A DNA stretch of 64,000 nucleotides from an uncultured Acidobacteriaceae bacterium (lineage in GTDB: Bacteria; Acidobacteriota; Terriglobia; Terriglobales; Acidobacteriaceae), in NCBI GenBank assembly GCA_963850805.1, contig CAWKNF010000027.1, forward strand, positions 43,201-107,200, in the 5' to 3' direction. The notes beneath the pieces are model-generated. The model was given only the letters and a program-made list of their open reading frames with translations. It was not told the DNA's origin and made no database searches. The number at the start of each line of letters is the position of its first letter. Position 1 is the stretch's first letter. Below, in pieces: positions 56,814-64,000 of this stretch. Both the position numbers and the translations under genes were made by a program.

Positions 56814-57473
56814 ATGACGCTGCGCCACAGTCTGTTCAAGTATTACGACCAGCGGATTTGGGCTGAGAAATTCCTCGACGGTGAGATGCTGTTCCGTTCC
56901 CTCGCATATTTTCGCGATTGTGAAGATGCCGTGCGCGGTGACGAGTACGAAGGCACCTCCCGGTTTTCGCCGGATGGTGGTTTGCAAATTACGAATCAAA
57001 CGCAGGGCACACAATTCACGCTTTCGGAATATGCTTTTGAATCTACAGTCAAAGCCAACGAGATATTTGTCTTTTGCACAAGTCGCAGGTTTGGGGACGA
57101 TCTGGCTAAGGAATTCAATGCCATTGTCGCCGTGGAGATCAACCGAATGCCGATGTTTTGCGAGCGAATTCGAGCAGCATTGCCGCCCACAGCTACATTC
57201 AGGGCAAGGCGCGTTGACTACTACCCGCAGTCTGAAGGTGGGAATCCACGCTGGGCGCTGCCCGATGATATTGCGACTTCAAAGCTGGACAAGTGGGCGC
57301 ATCAGGAAGAAACTCGGTTCATATTCTCGCTAACGGACGCCCTCACGTTCGAGAACGTAAAGTGTCAACTGTCGCGCCGTAAAACTCGGACTCCGGCTAA
57401 GCCTGAGGAACATCTCTCCCACCTGCTAAAGGTTGGCAATCTCCGCGACATCTGCCGCCTGCGGGAGTTCTAG
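56814..57473 (+). CDS. hypothetical protein
   Basis: 219 aa. N-terminal LFKYYDQRIWAEKFLDGEMLFRSLAYFRDCEDAVRGDEYEG is loosely reminiscent of DUF2971-type proteins. Not assignable. Confidence 0.5.
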   Translation: MTLRHSLFKYYDQRIWAEKFLDGEMLFRSLAYFRDCEDAVRGDEYEGTSRFSPDGGLQITNQTQGTQFTLSEYAFESTVKANEIFVFCTSRRFGDDLAKEFNAIVAVEINRMPMFCERIRAALPPTATFRARRVDYYPQSEGGNPRWALPDDIATSKLDKWAHQEETRFIFSLTDALTFENVKCQLSRRKTRTPAKPEEHLSHLLKVGNLRDICRLREF

Positions 57474-57516: not shown

Positions 57517-59103
57517 CTACCTGAATAACCAGTCGAGAATCTTCCCGATGACGCCTTTGCTTTTTTGCTGACCCGGACGGGACGGGGATGGGGTCGGAGG
57601 GTATGGGATTGTCTGGGGGGGAATTCCCTGAGCTTGCCGGAGCTTCGCCAAGATCGCTTGATTCTGAGACGCAGGCTTAAAACTTCTTATGGGAGAAGGT
57701 TTGCGTAGGGGGTTCCTGCCCGCGATTTTGTCAAGAACTCCGGCGTTATCCACAATAGCTCTGCCTGTTGAACCGCTACTGCCAAGTCTGAATGCCGCTT
57801 CTTCTGCGGAGATGAAGGAAATCTGCTGGTTCTGCGTAATACTGATTGCGAGATGTGAATACCGATACCGTTTAGAGGCATAAGGAGGTTCCATTAAGCC
57901 AACGACGCTGATGTGCTTGCCGACCCAACTTTGGCTTGGTTTCGGATGCAATGCTGCTAGCCCTTCCGACCACACACTGATCTTGACGATCTGCCCCTGC
58001 CATGGCCCGAAGTTGATGAAGACGTACGGTTTGCCATGACGTGTTCGAGATTCTTTGACTTCTACTATCTGCCCAATCAGTTCGACACGGTCTCCAACAT
58101 GCCTCATGCACAGGTCGAAATCTTTGGCATCGAGAACGGGGTATGCCGAGATATATACGCGAACCTTTTGCAGGGCTGGCGTCGTCGATATTTTGATTAC
58201 CTCGTGCGGGATGTTGCGACCGGAGAGAAAGTCATCGAGTGTCGGAATCCTTGCTAAGGGAGCTTTGCAAATAGACGCAAACCAACTGGCGTCTTGCGAG
58301 AAAGCCGTTTTTCCGTATAACAGGGAAAACACTGCTGAGGACTGTGGATCATCAAAGTCATTTGCTCGGAAGAGAACCCCATCCCCATCTGAACGGGTCT
58401 TGTCCCACAGGCTAGGGTCGGCTTCTAGTGCTCTAAGCGCACAATTCAACTCTATAAATGAAAAGCGATCCAAAGTGGCGTCAAACGGGCGCGTTCTAGG
58501 ACGTTCTGGGTGTTGGAAATTTCGGTGCCCCATCTCGGAGCTTCCTAGGGACTGAATCTCATCGACGTACATGCCGTCGTAGTCAATTAGCTGCAATGTC
58601 GAACCGTTCCCTGAGACCATGAGGTTTCCTGTTTGGACATCTCCATGCGCGATACCCTCACGCTCCAAGTAAGACGCCAATGCCTTCATCGAATTGATGA
58701 GATTTTGCAACGCGCCCTTATCGTGACGCCGACTTTCGAGAAATGAGCCGAGCGTCTCGCCGTTCGCCCACGTCATTTTGACGACGGGGTAAGCATGTTG
58801 ATTGATTCGGATTCCGTTAGGCTGAAATTCGAAATCAAGAAAATAAGGCGAGTGAAGCTGTTGGAGCTTCTTGGAGATCGCTTGGTATCTCCGTTCAAGC
58901 GCAGGCGACTCCTTATGAAAGCACCGGACAGCAAACTTGCGGGTGCGTGTGCTAAGCGTGTAGGTAAGGGCAAAACCACCACAAAGAGCCAGCGGCAGTC
59001 CAAGCCCCGTCGTGGTCACCGATCCAGTCTTGAGTTCTGGGTCGGTCAGAACAATGGGATGTTGCAGTGCCTCCTGATATTGTTCGAGACTTGGGTAGCT
59101 CAT
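57517..59103 (-). CDS. protein kinase-like protein with C-terminal OB-fold-like domain (TerY-P kinase component)
   Basis: VRCFHK (beta3 Lys region), catalytic HGDVQTGNLMV, metal-binding LIDYDGM. C-terminal DRVELIGQIVEVKESRTRHGKPYVFINFG is OB-fold-like. Confidence 0.75.
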   Translation of the reverse strand: MSYPSLEQYQEALQHPIVLTDPELKTGSVTTTGLGLPLALCGGFALTYTLSTRTRKFAVRCFHKESPALERRYQAISKKLQQLHSPYFLDFEFQPNGIRINQHAYPVVKMTWANGETLGSFLESRRHDKGALQNLINSMKALASYLEREGIAHGDVQTGNLMVSGNGSTLQLIDYDGMYVDEIQSLGSSEMGHRNFQHPERPRTRPFDATLDRFSFIELNCALRALEADPSLWDKTRSDGDGVLFRANDFDDPQSSAVFSLLYGKTAFSQDASWFASICKAPLARIPTLDDFLSGRNIPHEVIKISTTPALQKVRVYISAYPVLDAKDFDLCMRHVGDRVELIGQIVEVKESRTRHGKPYVFINFGPWQGQIVKISVWSEGLAALHPKPSQSWVGKHISVVGLMEPPYASKRYRYSHLAISITQNQQISFISAEEAAFRLGSSGSTGRAIVDNAGVLDKIAGRNPLRKPSPIRSFKPASQNQAILAKLRQAQGIPPQTIPYPPTPSPSRPGQQKSKGVIGKILDWLFR

Positions 59104-59118
59104 TGTCTGAAGCGCTTA

Positions 59119-59841
59119 TTAGAAACGTATCGCTAGCAATGTTGAGTCGTCGGTACGGATCGCCTTGCCTAACCGCGCCTGTGCAACTATCTCCGCTAAA
59201 TCAGGGTCACCTCTAGCGGCAAGAAGTTTGTGCCAATTTGGGTCGCCCTTTTCTACCAGTCTTAGAGTCCACTGACCAAGAGCATCAGTCATGCACAATA
59301 GAGTGAGACGAAGGAAGCCATCCAGTGACCAAACGACGCGGTGGCAAGAGACGAAATCACTCTCTGAAACGAAACTGTTGAGATTGTGTTGCGTAGAAAG
59401 CAAGGTTGGACGCGCTTCAAACTCAACAGCCGTGGAATAGGGCCAACTTCTTAAGACGTTGAACTCATCGTCCACTAGCAAGGCAAGGGTGTCACCAATC
59501 GCGACGATCTCAATGCTGTTGACGACGGTCTCGGTGTTGACTCCAAGAAGTGTGGAGAAACTTCCACGCTCGAACGAAGCCTGTTTCGAATAAGAAAGCT
59601 CGCTAAAGTTGTATGCGGTGGAGTACGAGATCGCCGCTTCCTGCACCCATTCTGGACTGATTTCGGGCTTCGCAATAAATCTCTCTGCAAGAATCTTAGC
59701 CCACGCTTTTGAGTCGAATGATTCACTTGCGCCGTCGCAGAGTGCGAATCGCCCCAAGGTTGTATCCACGCGCAGGCAGTCTTCATTCTCGTCCGGGGTC
59801 GATGGGTCTTTCGGAAAAGTTCCCGCGAATAAGACCTCCAT
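59119..59841 (-). CDS. PP2C-family protein phosphatase
   Basis: FALCDGASESFDS and IVAIGDT / CMTDAL acidic motifs typical of PP2C_2-type phosphatases. 15 nt upstream of the kinase gene. Confidence 0.65.
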   Translation of the reverse strand: MEVLFAGTFPKDPSTPDENEDCLRVDTTLGRFALCDGASESFDSKAWAKILAERFIAKPEISPEWVQEAAISYSTAYNFSELSYSKQASFERGSFSTLLGVNTETVVNSIEIVAIGDTLALLVDDEFNVLRSWPYSTAVEFEARPTLLSTQHNLNSFVSESDFVSCHRVVWSLDGFLRLTLLCMTDALGQWTLRLVEKGDPNWHKLLAARGDPDLAEIVAQARLGKAIRTDDSTLLAIRF

Positions 59842-59852
59842 GAAGATGTTAC

Positions 59853-60686
59853 CTATCGTAGCTGCGAAGCTCGCGTGCCAATATCGAAGAAATCTACAAT
59901 TTCTGGAGCTTCAGCGTTGAACATGAAGCCACGCGCTTCCGCCGTGACTTGATGACCCTTCTCTTGAGCAAAACGGAGGAGATGATCGGGTAGTTGGCTC
60001 GACATCCGAAAAAGCATCTTCGAGTAGGCGTCGGGCAGCAACATTTCACTTGAAGGGAATCTTATGGGGTCTGCACCCGCAGCACTCACATGGATGTTGA
60101 AGAGCAATGCTTCGCCGTCGTTTGTTCTAATTTGGCGCAGATGGGTTGCCAGTTCTTCGGGATCACCGTCCGTCGATTCTCCATCCGTGATGTGAAGAAT
60201 TGTCGGCGGATAGCAATCAGGGTGCCCATCGCACCAAGCAACCAAGTCTTCCGCAGTCTTGGTTAGAGCAGCACGCATCGGGGTTCCACCACTGGCTACT
60301 GCTTCGATCCATACCGGAAACTTCACCGTTTGCTCGGCGAGTCCACCCGCACCGTCGTCAATCCTTTTTCTTCTGTCTTCGATACGCAGAGGATTTGCTT
60401 CGATCTTGGACATAGGGTTCAACGAAGTTCCTCCAAGTGCCCCCTGAAAGCCATTTTGGACTCCGTGACCGCCATAACCAATGACTCCAACATAAAAGTA
60501 ATCGCGAGTACCTCCGGCGCTCGTACATCGGGTGACGAGAGTGTTCAACGTTCGATTTAGAGCGTCAGCAACGAACTGTGATTTGCTGCGCCCTCCTGCC
60601 ATCTTGTCTTCCATTGACCCAGATTGATCGACAACGAAAATAAAGCCTGTCGGATTTGCCCGACTGATTTCTGCTGTGTACGCCAT
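59853..60686 (-). CDS. vWA-domain protein (TerY-like)
   Basis: MIDAS motif FVVDQSGSM, plus later ASGGTPM and HITDGES. Confidence 0.8.
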   Translation of the reverse strand: MAYTAEISRANPTGFIFVVDQSGSMEDKMAGGRSKSQFVADALNRTLNTLVTRCTSAGGTRDYFYVGVIGYGGHGVQNGFQGALGGTSLNPMSKIEANPLRIEDRRKRIDDGAGGLAEQTVKFPVWIEAVASGGTPMRAALTKTAEDLVAWCDGHPDCYPPTILHITDGESTDGDPEELATHLRQIRTNDGEALLFNIHVSAAGADPIRFPSSEMLLPDAYSKMLFRMSSQLPDHLLRFAQEKGHQVTAEARGFMFNAEAPEIVDFFDIGTRASQLR

Positions 60687-60695
60687 GTCGCTCCC

Positions 60696-60992
60696 TCACG
60701 AGAAGAATTTGATTATTGCCCACAGCAATGCCAAGAACGCCAGACCGAGTAGATAGACCTTGGGCGCGGAAAACCAAGAGGCAAGAGTCGGTCGGCTAGA
60801 TTGGCTGGGTTGCCCCTCATAGTCTCGCCGATATATCCCAGTGCCGGGAATGCTGACTTGTTGATACTTCTTGCCCTTTGCGTTTGTGCCGATGCGGTAT
60901 CCGGGCACACCCAGAGAGTATCCAATGCCGCTTTTAGACAGGTTGATTCTCAGCGGACCAAAACGCAGACCCTTGCGCCAGTTCCAACTCAT
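60696..60992 (-). CDS. DUF4236-domain protein with C-terminal TM anchor
   Basis: WRKGLRFGPLRINLSKSGIGYSLGVPGYRIG matches the DUF4236 pattern. C-terminal hydrophobic LLGLAFLALLWAII. 9 nt upstream of the vWA gene. Confidence 0.7.
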   Translation of the reverse strand: MSWNWRKGLRFGPLRINLSKSGIGYSLGVPGYRIGTNAKGKKYQQVSIPGTGIYRRDYEGQPSQSSRPTLASWFSAPKVYLLGLAFLALLWAIIKFFS

Positions 60993-61235
60993 AGCAGCCT
61001 TCGTGAACGACCTCTACATCGGTAGCCAACTATAACAAAACGCAAAGAGTAACGCACATACCACCACGCGGTGATCGGTAGCCGAACCAGATTGTGCGGA
61101 GAGCCAACAAAGTTGGCGTGCGTCATTCCGAAAGCCATGTGACGATCAAAGAAAGATCGACAACACACTGGATCGTGGAAATTGCTGTGATCCGGCAGCG
61201 CCTAAACTTGGACATCCCGTGATCTAATATCGGCG

Positions 61236-62141
61236 ATGAGCGCTCTCATGGTCGGGAAATCTTCACTCTCATTTCTGCTGTTGGCGCTTGCATTTCAACC
61301 GCAAGCAGCGTGGGCATGGGGCAACGACGGGCACATGTACGTGAACCGAGTTGCAGCCGAAAAGCTGCCGCCAGACATCCCCAGCTTTTTGCGAAGTGCC
61401 GTTTCCGAGTTGGCGTATCTTGGCCCGGAGCCTGACCGTTGGCGGGAGGACTCCGGGCCAGCACTGAAGGGTGCGCAGGAGCCGGATCATTACATTGATC
61501 TGGAGAGGATCGCTTGGTTGAATCCGCTGCCGGAAGATCGGTACGAGTTTTATAGGAAGCTGTACGAGAAACGGGCGCAGACAAAAGACAATCCCGACGA
61601 TTACCTCCCTGAGCGGGTCGGTCTACAACCCTACATTGTCATGGAAATTTTCGGGCGGTTGAAAAATGCGTTTCGAGAATATCGACACCTGCGCGAGCAT
61701 CATCAGCCGACAGACTTCATTGAACACAAAATCGTGTTCCATGCAGGGTGGTTGGGTCATTACGTCGCGGACGGATCGCAGCCCCTCCATACGACCATCC
61801 ATTACAACGGTTGGGTGGGTACAAACCCGAAGGGATACGTGGCGCACGGGGGTATTCATGCTGAGTTCGAGACCGCCTACGTGTCACGCAACATCGCCCC
61901 CGCCGACTTCGCTGGTTTGGTTCATCCTCCAGAGCGCATTGCCAATCCCTTCGACGGCTATGTCCAGTATTTAAGGGATTCAAATAAACTGGTTGAAAGA
62001 GTCTATGAATTGGACAAGGCTGGCGGCTTTCGTGATGCCGGATCAAAAGAAGCGTTCGTTTTCACAACACAAAGACTCGCCGCTGGCAGCCAGATGCTCG
62101 TGAACCTGTGGTATACAGCTTGGCTGGACAGTGCAGAATGA
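61236..62141 (+). CDS. S1/P1-type nuclease (zinc-dependent), secreted
   Basis: The mature N-terminus WGNDGHMYV after the signal peptide, and HYVADGSQPLHTT, match S1/P1 nuclease zinc ligand motifs. Confidence 0.7.
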   Translation: MSALMVGKSSLSFLLLALAFQPQAAWAWGNDGHMYVNRVAAEKLPPDIPSFLRSAVSELAYLGPEPDRWREDSGPALKGAQEPDHYIDLERIAWLNPLPEDRYEFYRKLYEKRAQTKDNPDDYLPERVGLQPYIVMEIFGRLKNAFREYRHLREHHQPTDFIEHKIVFHAGWLGHYVADGSQPLHTTIHYNGWVGTNPKGYVAHGGIHAEFETAYVSRNIAPADFAGLVHPPERIANPFDGYVQYLRDSNKLVERVYELDKAGGFRDAGSKEAFVFTTQRLAAGSQMLVNLWYTAWLDSAE

Positions 62142-62154
62142 TGGGGAGGATGAG

Positions 62155-62529
62155 ATGATCTGCTACAAAACAAGAGCCTTCGTAGTTCCGGCTGTCGTCG
62201 TTCTGGCGGTTACACTAGGCTACGCACAAACCTCGATTTCGGCAGCCGAAGCCAAGAAGCATGTTGGGGAGAGGGGAACAGTTTGCGGAGAAGTGGCGAG
62301 CACCCACTATGCCGCACGGAGTCGCGGAAATCCGACGTTCATCAATCTCGATAAGCCCTACCCCGACGAGATTTTCACGGTGCTGATTTGGGGGAGTGAC
62401 CGACCGAAGTTTGGCGACCCTGAGGAGATGTATCGGAACAAGCGCATCTGCGCGACTGGAAAGATCAGCGATTACAAAGGTGTCCCTGAAATAGTCGCCT
62501 ACGAACCTTCGCAGATCACGATCCGCTAA
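62155..62529 (+). CDS. small exported OB-fold-like protein
   Basis: ATG 62155 preceded by GGGGAGGA. Signal or TM segment, then GERGTVCGEVAST...TFINLDKPYPDEIFTVLIW...ICATGKISDYKGVPEI. Confidence 0.55.
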   Translation: MICYKTRAFVVPAVVVLAVTLGYAQTSISAAEAKKHVGERGTVCGEVASTHYAARSRGNPTFINLDKPYPDEIFTVLIWGSDRPKFGDPEEMYRNKRICATGKISDYKGVPEIVAYEPSQITIR

Positions 62530-62604
62530 TTCCGGGTTACGAAGAAACGCGCATTCAAGATATGGTCTGCACGACGGGAGGTCTCCGATACCGGGGAGGA
62601 ACAA

Positions 62605-62975
62605 ATGAACCGACTTTTCGGATTAGCATTACTGTGCCTTGCCCTTGTTCCTTTGGCATCGGCTGAAACTCGCTCGGCTCAAGACATGGCGAAGGAGTGC
62701 CGGGTCGCGCTAGACCTTTTCCAAAACCGCGTCGAGAAGAGCTTTGAGAACACGCTCTTGCAGGCGAGTGCATCGGGTACATACAAGGTGCAGGCGACGT
62801 TTCACTCGCGATGGCAGACAACGTGAAGTGGTTCAAAGTCTGTGTTCCTGACAGCACGTCAACCATGACTCTTATCCAGAAGTTCATCGCATTCGTGGAT
62901 AAGAATCCGAAATACACGCTCGCATCAACGGCATTTCAGTTGATGCTTGGTCAGGAGTTTCCGTGCTCGAAGTGA
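62605..62975 (+). pseudogene. frameshifted Rap1a/Tai4-like (T6SS-immunity-like) exported protein
   Basis: Frame 1 gives the signal peptide plus ..ECRVALDLFQNRVEKSFENTLLQA, then junk and a stop at 62826. From about 62748-62768 the frame shifted by one base reads ECIGYIQGAGDVSLAMADNVKWFKVCVPDSTSTMTLIQKFIAFVDKNPKYTLASTAFQLMLGQEFPCSK-stop (62973-62975). Confidence 0.55.
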
Positions 62976-63119
62976 GGCAAGGCAAGGGGACTTCTTGACC
63001 CGCATGGGAGGGGTGTTGAGCGCGGTGTGAAGAGACCTCTGACCTCTGATGGCGGGTTTGCGTCAGGCGACGAAAGTGTGCCAGAATTCGCTTGGTTCCT
63101 TCCCCCATCCAAGGAAAAC

Positions 63120-64000
63120 ATGAATAGTCCGGTCGTAGTGGGGATGGTCGTATCCGCTTGCTTGCTGATTGGTTGCACGGCATCAGCACAGCAGACACAA
63201 TCCACAGGTACAAAGCATCCTGCGAGCAAGGCTTCGAGTCTGCCAACCGCAGACACCCTGCGGATACGCCTTCAGTTCCATCCCCACGACGCTGATGCCC
63301 ACAAGCAACTCATCAAGCTACTGCACGACAAATATGCGTTCCGGGCGATTGTCGCGGAAGATACCACTTGGCTGAGCAACAATCGCAGCGACTCGTGGGC
63401 ACTCACCGAGATTGTTAGTTACTCGGAGACTGCTCTGCATGATCCCGAATACGCTATAGCGCAGTTGCGTCTGCAACTTGCCGCAGTCTCGCGAAAAGAT
63501 GACCCCGAAGATTTTGACGACTGGTCGGATCAACTCGCCGCTAAACTGCAAAAAAGAGGCAGACCAGAAGAGGCTCTCCCACTGCTCAGTGAGCTAGTTC
63601 GGCTGAACCCTAATGAGGCAGGTTTCTGGGCTGACTATGGCGACTTGCTCTCTGCGCTAGGTCAGAATGCGGACGCAATTAAAGCGTTTCGACGATCAAT
63701 TGAACTCAATCCGTCGATGGAATCCTTTCACGAAGGTTTTGCGGAAGCACTAGTCAAGTCCGGGGACTTGAACGGCGCGGAATCCGAGTACCGCGCTGCT
63801 CTTTCTGTCTATGATGCCCAGTATAAGAAGGGAGAACCGACTGACTCGTATCACTCCTTCATCAGCGGTATGGTGAAGATTGAGGCTGCCCACGGTGAGG
63901 AACACGCCCTAGCCGAAACGCGAATGAAACTCGCACACATTTTGCTTCTTGATAAGAAGTACGACGAAGCCCTCGTTCAAGCAAAGGCTGCGTTGGATGC
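63120..64000 (+). CDS. TPR-repeat lipoprotein-like protein (3' end beyond window)
   Basis: ATG 63120. MNSPVVVGMVVSACLLIGCTASAQ lipobox-like signal. TPR-like units (EALPLLSELVRLNPNEAGFWADYGDLLSALGQNADAIKAFRRSIELNP). Open to the window end, so it is absent from the ORF track. Confidence 0.7.
   Translation, partial: MNSPVVVGMVVSACLLIGCTASAQQTQSTGTKHPASKASSLPTADTLRIRLQFHPHDADAHKQLIKLLHDKYAFRAIVAEDTTWLSNNRSDSWALTEIVSYSETALHDPEYAIAQLRLQLAAVSRKDDPEDFDDWSDQLAAKLQKRGRPEEALPLLSELVRLNPNEAGFWADYGDLLSALGQNADAIKAFRRSIELNPSMESFHEGFAEALVKSGDLNGAESEYRAALSVYDAQYKKGEPTDSYHSFISGMVKIEAAHGEEHALAETRMKLAHILLLDKKYDEALVQAKAALD

Follow-up and report, generated by a model that had tools for sequence, protein, structure and literature searches.

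The triad of a vWA protein, a PP2C phosphatase and a kinase known as TerY-P is an established anti-phage system, which protects Escherichia coli against T7-like phages (PMC7699616) and which in Pseudomonas aeruginosa acts against Autographiviridae at both low and high multiplicity of infection (MOI), with most of the cells surviving (bioRxiv 10.1101/2022.08.12.503731). According to PMC10542128, which quotes Anantharaman et al. 2012, the triad was originally predicted to sense metal and to work as a phosphorylation switch, and the same paper gives the OB-fold kinase as the form present in the TerY-P modules that Gao et al. 2020 found to be defensive on their own; TerY-P triads associated with CoCoNuT systems carry a zinc ribbon rather than an OB fold (Bell et al., PMC10542128). 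Our literature search on TerY-P returned no mechanistic study, and a sequence search of the PDB no structure of any TerY-P component. Here we consider a four-gene operon, at positions 57517-60992 on the minus strand of a 64,000-nt stretch of contig CAWKNF010000027.1 (the whole of which is called the window below), from a peat or soil acidobacterium. It is very probably a canonical OB-type TerY-P anti-phage system, functional in appearance, with an accessory gene in the same operon for a tail-anchored DUF4236 protein that we model as a membrane-proximal partner of the triad.

Judged by their sequences, genes 2 to 4 of the operon are a canonical OB-type TerY-P system, and so of a known kind, because the three PADLOC models match at full length and because E. 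coli has collinear homologues that RefSeq names as the “TerY-P anti-phage system-associated” VWA protein, serine/threonine phosphatase and serine/threonine kinase. Gene 2 (59853-60686, minus strand; an open reading frame [ORF] of 277 aa) matches PADLOC TerY (PDLC02224) over positions 1-277 of 277 with 510 bits (E = 3e-154), and at the nucleotide level it shares 68% identity with an E. coli gene that bears the name [quoted passage not shown] Its metal ion-dependent adhesion site (MIDAS) is complete: D20, S22, S24, T135 and D168 are all present, and in a set of 38 homologues each of them is kept in at least 95%. Gene 3 (59119-59841, minus; 240 aa), a PP2C-family Ser/Thr phosphatase, has a full-length match to PADLOC PP2C (PDLC02222; 284 bits, E = 1.5e-85) and the acidic metal-binding residues D21, D36-G37, D117, D186 and D231-D232, which are kept in at least 95% of homologues. 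Gene 4 (57517-59103, minus; 528 aa) is the kinase and matches STK_OB (PDLC02223) over residues 1-500 with 760 bits (E = 5e-229). The Pfam scores of the triad are weak (VWA, 24 bits; Pkinase, 23.5 bits), and a Pfam scan of the phosphatase in the window gave no match, although its homologues do match PP2C_2; this weakness explains why the original prediction, made from the letters alone, leaned on motifs. Its assignment of the locus to TerY-P, with a complete vWA MIDAS and a PP2C phosphatase, is upheld by the PADLOC classification and by the conserved residues just listed. The three genes are co-oriented and contiguous, and the same order is found in 9 of 10 genome loci as well as in E. coli. 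TerY is conserved at 70-79% identity across Proteobacteria, Acidobacteriota and others; the phosphatase (36-50%) and the kinase (47-55%) diverge faster. One copy elsewhere, at L002:339-1601, has a 5′-truncated TerY (residues 95-276 remain) abutting transposase-like ORFs and has thus been disrupted by an insertion sequence.

The departure from the described system is the gene that leads the operon. That a DUF4236 protein with a membrane anchor is no part of the canonical triad had been suspected from the sequence at the outset, and the gene is indeed absent from both the PADLOC definition and the E. coli loci. Gene 1 (60696-60992, minus; an ORF of 98 aa) matches the entire Pfam profile DUF4236 (PF14020, positions 1-55 of 55) with 65.6 bits against a cut-off of 27 (E = 5.7e-18). 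In its AlphaFold2 (AF2) model, which has a predicted local distance difference test score (pLDDT) of 83.8, six strands form three beta-hairpins (residues 6-58) and are accompanied by a transmembrane (TM) helix. The DUF4236 domain (residues 1-59), in which an invariant PGTG turn is encoded at 60834-60851, is followed by a disordered linker (residues 60-75) and by the hydrophobic C-terminal TM helix (residues ~77-98, encoded at 60699-60764 and seen in the AF2 model), which makes this a tail-anchored protein. Against the PDB the domain has no fold relatives, the best match (E = 1.6) being a faint likeness to RHS/MORN-like hairpin repeats. The spacer between genes 1 and 2 reads TGA-GGGAGCGAC-ATG, so that the Shine-Dalgarno sequence of TerY abuts the DUF4236 stop codon; this is the usual signature of operonic genes, possibly translationally coupled ones. 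The spacers along the block are 9, 11 and 15 nt in gene order, and the ORF list here agrees exactly with the tight packing first reported. An independent peat contig (L015) carries all four genes too; over 3.9 kb its nucleotide sequence is 97.3% identical, and the DUF4236 proteins of the two contigs are the same (100% identity).

The companionship between DUF4236 and such triads is real and recurrent. All 8 sampled homologues of the tail-anchored protein (44-73% identity) adjoin a vWA-PP2C-kinase triad, and these triads belong to three subtypes, the OB type, a Zn type and a short-vWA type, which share 35-50% identity. The association was also surveyed from the side of the triad, with OB-type loci gathered by a kinase or TerY query alone and scanned in all six frames with a local DUF4236 hidden Markov model (HMM). 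Nineteen independent loci had adequate flanks; six of them hold a full DUF4236 gene and one a fragment, and five of these seven matches lie within 350 nt of the triad. By domain profile, DUF4236 occurs in 14,291 of 1.84e9 representative proteins, or ~8e-6 per protein, a background frequency that rules out chance adjacency in a third of the OB-type loci and against which DUF4236 is enriched roughly thousand-fold next to triads. The DUF4236-positive loci are scattered over at least six places on the TerY tree, and the position, orientation and architecture of the gene vary among them. In view of these scattered places and of the three architectures described below, we rejected the explanation that a single clade had inherited DUF4236 as its fixed fourth gene. 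The picture is instead that of a modular accessory gene, gained, lost and repositioned repeatedly, which is optional rather than core. Thus, of the proposal that DUF4236 is a conserved fourth gene, the recurrence beside triads stands but the fixity does not, since roughly a third of the OB-type loci have it. As far as the searchable literature shows, this companion is so far new and undescribed.

Three DUF4236 architectures, classes A, B and C, are found among the OB-type loci. Class A (the window and L030) is the tail-anchored form of ~100 aa. Class B (L023-26, L007, L027 and L001) is a soluble protein of ~105 aa that ends in N-x-R-L/V-L-E-x-I-K/R; its gene lies downstream on the same strand in L023-26, is convergent in L007 and divergent in L027 (where the domain match is weak), and is a fragment in L001. 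Class C, of ~393 aa with a long C-terminal region, is encoded directly upstream of the triad in L006 and 4 kb off in L016. Neither class B nor class C proteins have a TM segment. The ending of class B bears on the kinase, whose disordered tail holds two copies of a conserved motif. An HMM built from the kinase-tail copies alone was searched against all ORFs in the window and the collected loci, 6,083 in number, with a noise level of 4.2 bits, and the only non-kinase ORFs to exceed the noise were three independent class-B DUF4236 proteins: L027, with the top score overall (15.3), L023-26 (8.9) and L007 (5.4). We infer that the anchor of class A and the tail motif of class B could both serve to bring the DUF4236 domain to the site of the kinase. 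As to class C, the proteins encoded at L006:2915-4096 and L016:612-1790 (393-394 aa) resemble a coiled coil in their middle part, and their C-terminal domain is conserved; the L006 protein weakly matches the PADLOC mREase_IV model (E = 4e-5), and a PDB sequence search with the class-C protein returned nothing. In L016, where a TIR domain is also encoded nearby, genes for RmuC and AAA_15 stand between the DUF4236 gene and the triad.

The kinase consists of a Hanks-type domain (residues 1-295), an OB fold (~318-445), a Pro/Ser-rich disordered tail and a terminal helix. The AF2 model (pLDDT 83.5) finds ASK1 and PknB with Foldseek at E ~1e-8, and the catalytic residues G42-G43, E70, H153-G154-D155, N160 and DYD 174-176 (with D174) are present, in agreement with the original prediction, which had called a kinase from its HGD and DYD motifs. 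Hanks kinases carry a catalytic Lys (VAIK) at the beta3 position. In all 22 aligned TerY-P kinases this position is held by an invariant Arg, which in the window is R60 within FAVRCF (residues 57-62, 58918-58935). Such a family-wide change from Lys to Arg, with E70, HGD, N160 and D174 all retained, is unusual for an active kinase. The OB-fold domain (57769-58152, minus) is a five-strand barrel with one helix in the AF2 model (residues ~323-431). It was judged by profile search, the Foldseek list being saturated by kinase matches: 8 of 22 homologous OB regions match the OB-fold nucleic-acid-binding domain PF01336, and there is some weak similarity to the N-terminal OB region of MCM. An OB-fold-like module and a Pro-rich tail had been proposed for the C-terminal half, and the barrel, the PF01336 matches of the homologues and the Pro/Ser-rich tail agree with this. 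The accompanying suggestion that the OB fusion is not part of the system as described has to be given up, for the TerY-P kinase model of PADLOC is itself named STK_OB. As a novelty, therefore, the fusion was rejected; it is the canonical form, both by that model and in PMC10542128.

It is the tail of this kinase that points to the membrane. Nearly all STK_OB kinases have, within their disordered tails, two copies of the motif N-x-x-h-L-x-x-h-K/R-G. In the window these are VDNAGVLDKIAG (57718-57753, residues 451-462) and SQNQAILAKLRQ (57634-57669, residues 479-490), both on the minus strand and both conserved, and in the AF2 model they are the sole helical segments of the tail besides the terminal helix (518-527). 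The extreme C-terminus, defined from orthologues and AF2 as residues 516-528 (57520-57558, minus), is an amphipathic helix (KGVIGKILDWLFR in the window, KNIVTKILKWLFG in E. coli) or, in other lineages, a hydrophobic TM helix. Because the C-termini alternate between these two forms, the kinase appears to be membrane-associated, and the C-terminal helix is presumed to be its membrane-targeting sequence. A kinase without a triad was seen at L009:6001-6870, on a contig binned as a Methanoregulaceae archaeon, where only a 290-aa kinase-domain fragment (52% identical) is present, with no TerY or PP2C gene upstream; the fragment is a remnant or else an artefact of the binning.

A model for the system can be put together from these parts. 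The C-terminal amphipathic helix of the kinase would tether it to the inner side of the membrane, with the OB domain positioned for contact with nucleic acid. Kinase and phosphatase would form a phosphorylation switch, which TerY would read or gate through its MIDAS site. As a partner of the triad, DUF4236 would be recruited to where the kinase sits, most likely to serve as adaptor or substrate, and its recruitment would rely on its own membrane anchor in the window locus and on a copy of the kinase-tail docking motif in other loci. The homologues that have been tested lead us to expect protection against T7-like podophages that spares the cell. It is possible, but we hold this only tentatively and with less than even confidence, that a subfamily of DUF4236 proteins is more than an accessory, that is, a genuine fourth modular subunit of the OB, Zn and short-vWA defence triads, whose beta-hairpin domain is acted on or through and is delivered by an anchor or a docking motif. 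For instance, the threonine of the PGTG turn may be a phospho-substrate, or the domain may be a ligand of the TerY MIDAS site. If true, the inner membrane would be the seat of TerY-P signalling, which would gain a first testable protein-protein wiring. In any case, the results yield three hypotheses that can be tested by mutation, namely a recurrent DUF4236 partner, a motif common to this partner and the kinase tail, and a membrane-targeting helix of the kinase, and they provide a functional context for DUF4236, a domain with ~14,000 sequence clusters.

Several observations weigh against the partner model for the window. The nearest relatives of the window TerY other than L015 (75-79% identity) have no adjacent DUF4236. 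The E. coli three-gene TerY-P loci are without it as well, and since the three-gene form defends without DUF4236, the fourth gene must be dispensable in at least some hosts. Evidence of co-transcription was sought among transcripts, and the sequence was matched in DNA metagenomes only. A BFVD structure search with DUF4236 found only other DUF4236 proteins and no characterised structural relative. The interaction between DUF4236 and the triad, the membrane localisation, the ligand of the OB domain and the phosphorylation of DUF4236 are all things that we infer. Moreover, the wider DUF4236 family, which occurs in phages and plasmids, has for the most part no link to triads, and only particular subfamilies are partners. 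Records of DUF4236 number 25 in phages and 43 in plasmids, compared with 0 and 2 for TerY; three plasmid contexts that were spot-checked hold no triad, and many of the 150 best DUF4236 library matches have long C-terminal extensions. DUF4236 was for this reason, given the phage and plasmid records and the triad-free plasmid contexts, rejected as a general marker of TerY-P. The phage proteins come from Clostridium/Clostridioides, Mycobacterium, Pasteurella, Faecalibacterium and Microcystis phages, with NC_011273.1 14112-14282 (Mycobacterium phage Myrna gp31/32) and OP172752.1 38172-38330 as examples. Scans of viral contigs with TerY and with DUF4236 gave no relatives.

Some of these facts lend colour to the notion that DUF4236 has no functional tie to the triad and hitch-hikes beside it, as an unrelated neighbour that happens to encode one of the small membrane proteins of the island. 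The canonical TerY-P has three genes, about two thirds of the OB-type loci do without DUF4236, and the domain turns up in many other contexts, phages and plasmids included. We nevertheless regard this as unlikely. A hitch-hiker would not be expected to adjoin a triad in 8 of 8 homologues across three subtypes, nor to keep its spacing to TerY at 9-10 nt with the TerY ribosome-binding site at the DUF4236 stop codon. The recurrence of DUF4236 beside triads in differing positions and orientations, the kinase-tail motif in the class-B proteins and the roughly thousand-fold enrichment over background argue in the same direction.

Similarly improbable, in our estimate, is that the DUF4236 protein is a membrane-damaging effector fired by the kinase switch in abortive infection, with the triad as the mere sensor. 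A small tail-anchored protein at the head of the operon would suit such a role, particularly as the triad has no obvious effector domain, and the large extra C-terminal domain of class C, with its one weak mREase_IV match, could be an alternative output module. But the lack of a TM segment in the class B and C partners rules out membrane damage as the function common to all, and three-gene systems already defend. The cells protected by TerY-P mostly survive infection at high MOI, unlike in abortive infection, and a single TM helix joined to a folded cytoplasmic beta domain resembles an anchor, not a pore former.

The surroundings of the operon are those of a defence-type island. A convergent plus-strand gene ends at 57473 on one flank, and on the other an S1/P1 nuclease gene (61236-62141) is divergent, so that the intergenic region 60993-61235 is shared divergently with it. 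From the ORF layout and the sequence, the promoter of the four-gene operon (minus strand) is presumed to lie in this region; consensus scans of the locus gave no convincing sigma-70 match and no promoter or terminator above background. The island around the operon includes an AbiJ-like gene, a nuclease and deaminase pair and a RusA-like gene. Beyond the operon, window positions 61236-64000 are syntenic with L015:1-5441 (a secreted S1/P1 nuclease, a Rap1a-like gene and a TPR protein), so that the left boundary of the operon, at ~61 kb, is common to both strains. Among the neighbouring ORFs, none is a McrB-like, McrC-like or helicase gene, and none at 52-64 kb is a ter gene (terZABCDE or terD family). 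That the operon is a housekeeping or stress module for tellurite or metal signalling, and not anti-phage, is very improbable: TerY is named after tellurite-resistance loci and the triad was first predicted as a metal-sensing switch (Anantharaman et al. 2012, in the quotation already cited from PMC10542128), but the neighbourhood holds no other ter genes, the match to a defence-validated subtype is full-length, the island has other defence-type genes, and the family has a patchy distribution and a horizontal spread across many phyla, in which TerY is still 70-79% identical, as is typical of defence genes.

How the locus stands relative to known systems can now be stated. With Pfam DUF4236 at large (PF14020), the window protein has in common the N-terminal 55-residue glycine-rich beta-hairpin domain with its PGTG turn; the difference is that most members of the family have other C-terminal extensions, up to ~580 aa, and stand in triad-free contexts. 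The closest described triad, TerY-P in E. coli G3/10 (H4P47_RS00305-RS00315), has the same gene order and nearly the same protein lengths (277/239/561 aa, vs. 277/240/528 aa in the window), and the kinases of both have an OB fold, two tail motifs and a C-terminal amphipathic helix. The hosts differ, a proteobacterium there and a peat or soil acidobacterium here, and relative to E. coli and to the PADLOC definition the window has the extra, co-oriented and tightly coupled DUF4236 gene upstream of TerY. In E. coli G3/10 itself (L052:9407-12825), TerY-P is directly followed by the M and S genes of a type I restriction-modification system and a DUF4268 gene, and a conserved hypothetical gene of 136 aa, with no PADLOC match, precedes the operon. 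The window also differs from the TerY-P triads associated with CoCoNuT, for those combine a zinc-ribbon kinase with McrBC-like CnuB/C and with CnuH/E, whereas here the kinase has an OB fold and such neighbours are lacking.

Two other groups of triads are missed, wholly or in part, by current defence-finder models. The short-vWA triads (L054:5001-8755, L055:5001-7714, L056:1870-5639 and L059:3711-7452, within the range L054-L059) encode a Pfam-VWA protein of 224 aa together with a PP2C_2 phosphatase and a Pkinase of 295-657 aa, and each triad has a tail-anchored DUF4236 protein (44-63% identity), the gene for which is convergent with the kinase in L056-58. Unlike the window they do not match the PADLOC TerY and PP2C models, and the kinase matches only a generic STK of the PD-T4-6 type; by these comparisons they look like an uncatalogued TerY-P-like system. 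The Zn-type triads (L011-L014), which are placed here with the CoCoNuT-associated TerY-P of Bell et al., have the DUF4236 genes most akin to that of the window. They share with the window the vWA-PP2C-kinase order and a DUF4236 gene in the same position, upstream of TerY at 9-10 nt, in operons of DUF4236, TerY, PP2C and kinase genes such as L012:5001-8497, L013:3662-7158 and L014:291-3092. Their kinase, however, ends in an Ada-type Zn-binding domain (PF02805, E = 1e-8) and not in the OB fold of the window. While TerY is ~50% and the kinase ~35% identical between the Zn type and the window, the DUF4236 proteins are 56-73% identical, and this greater closeness suggests an accessory gene that moves between triad subtypes. 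The window thus combines an OB-type triad with a DUF4236 that is otherwise seen with the Zn type.

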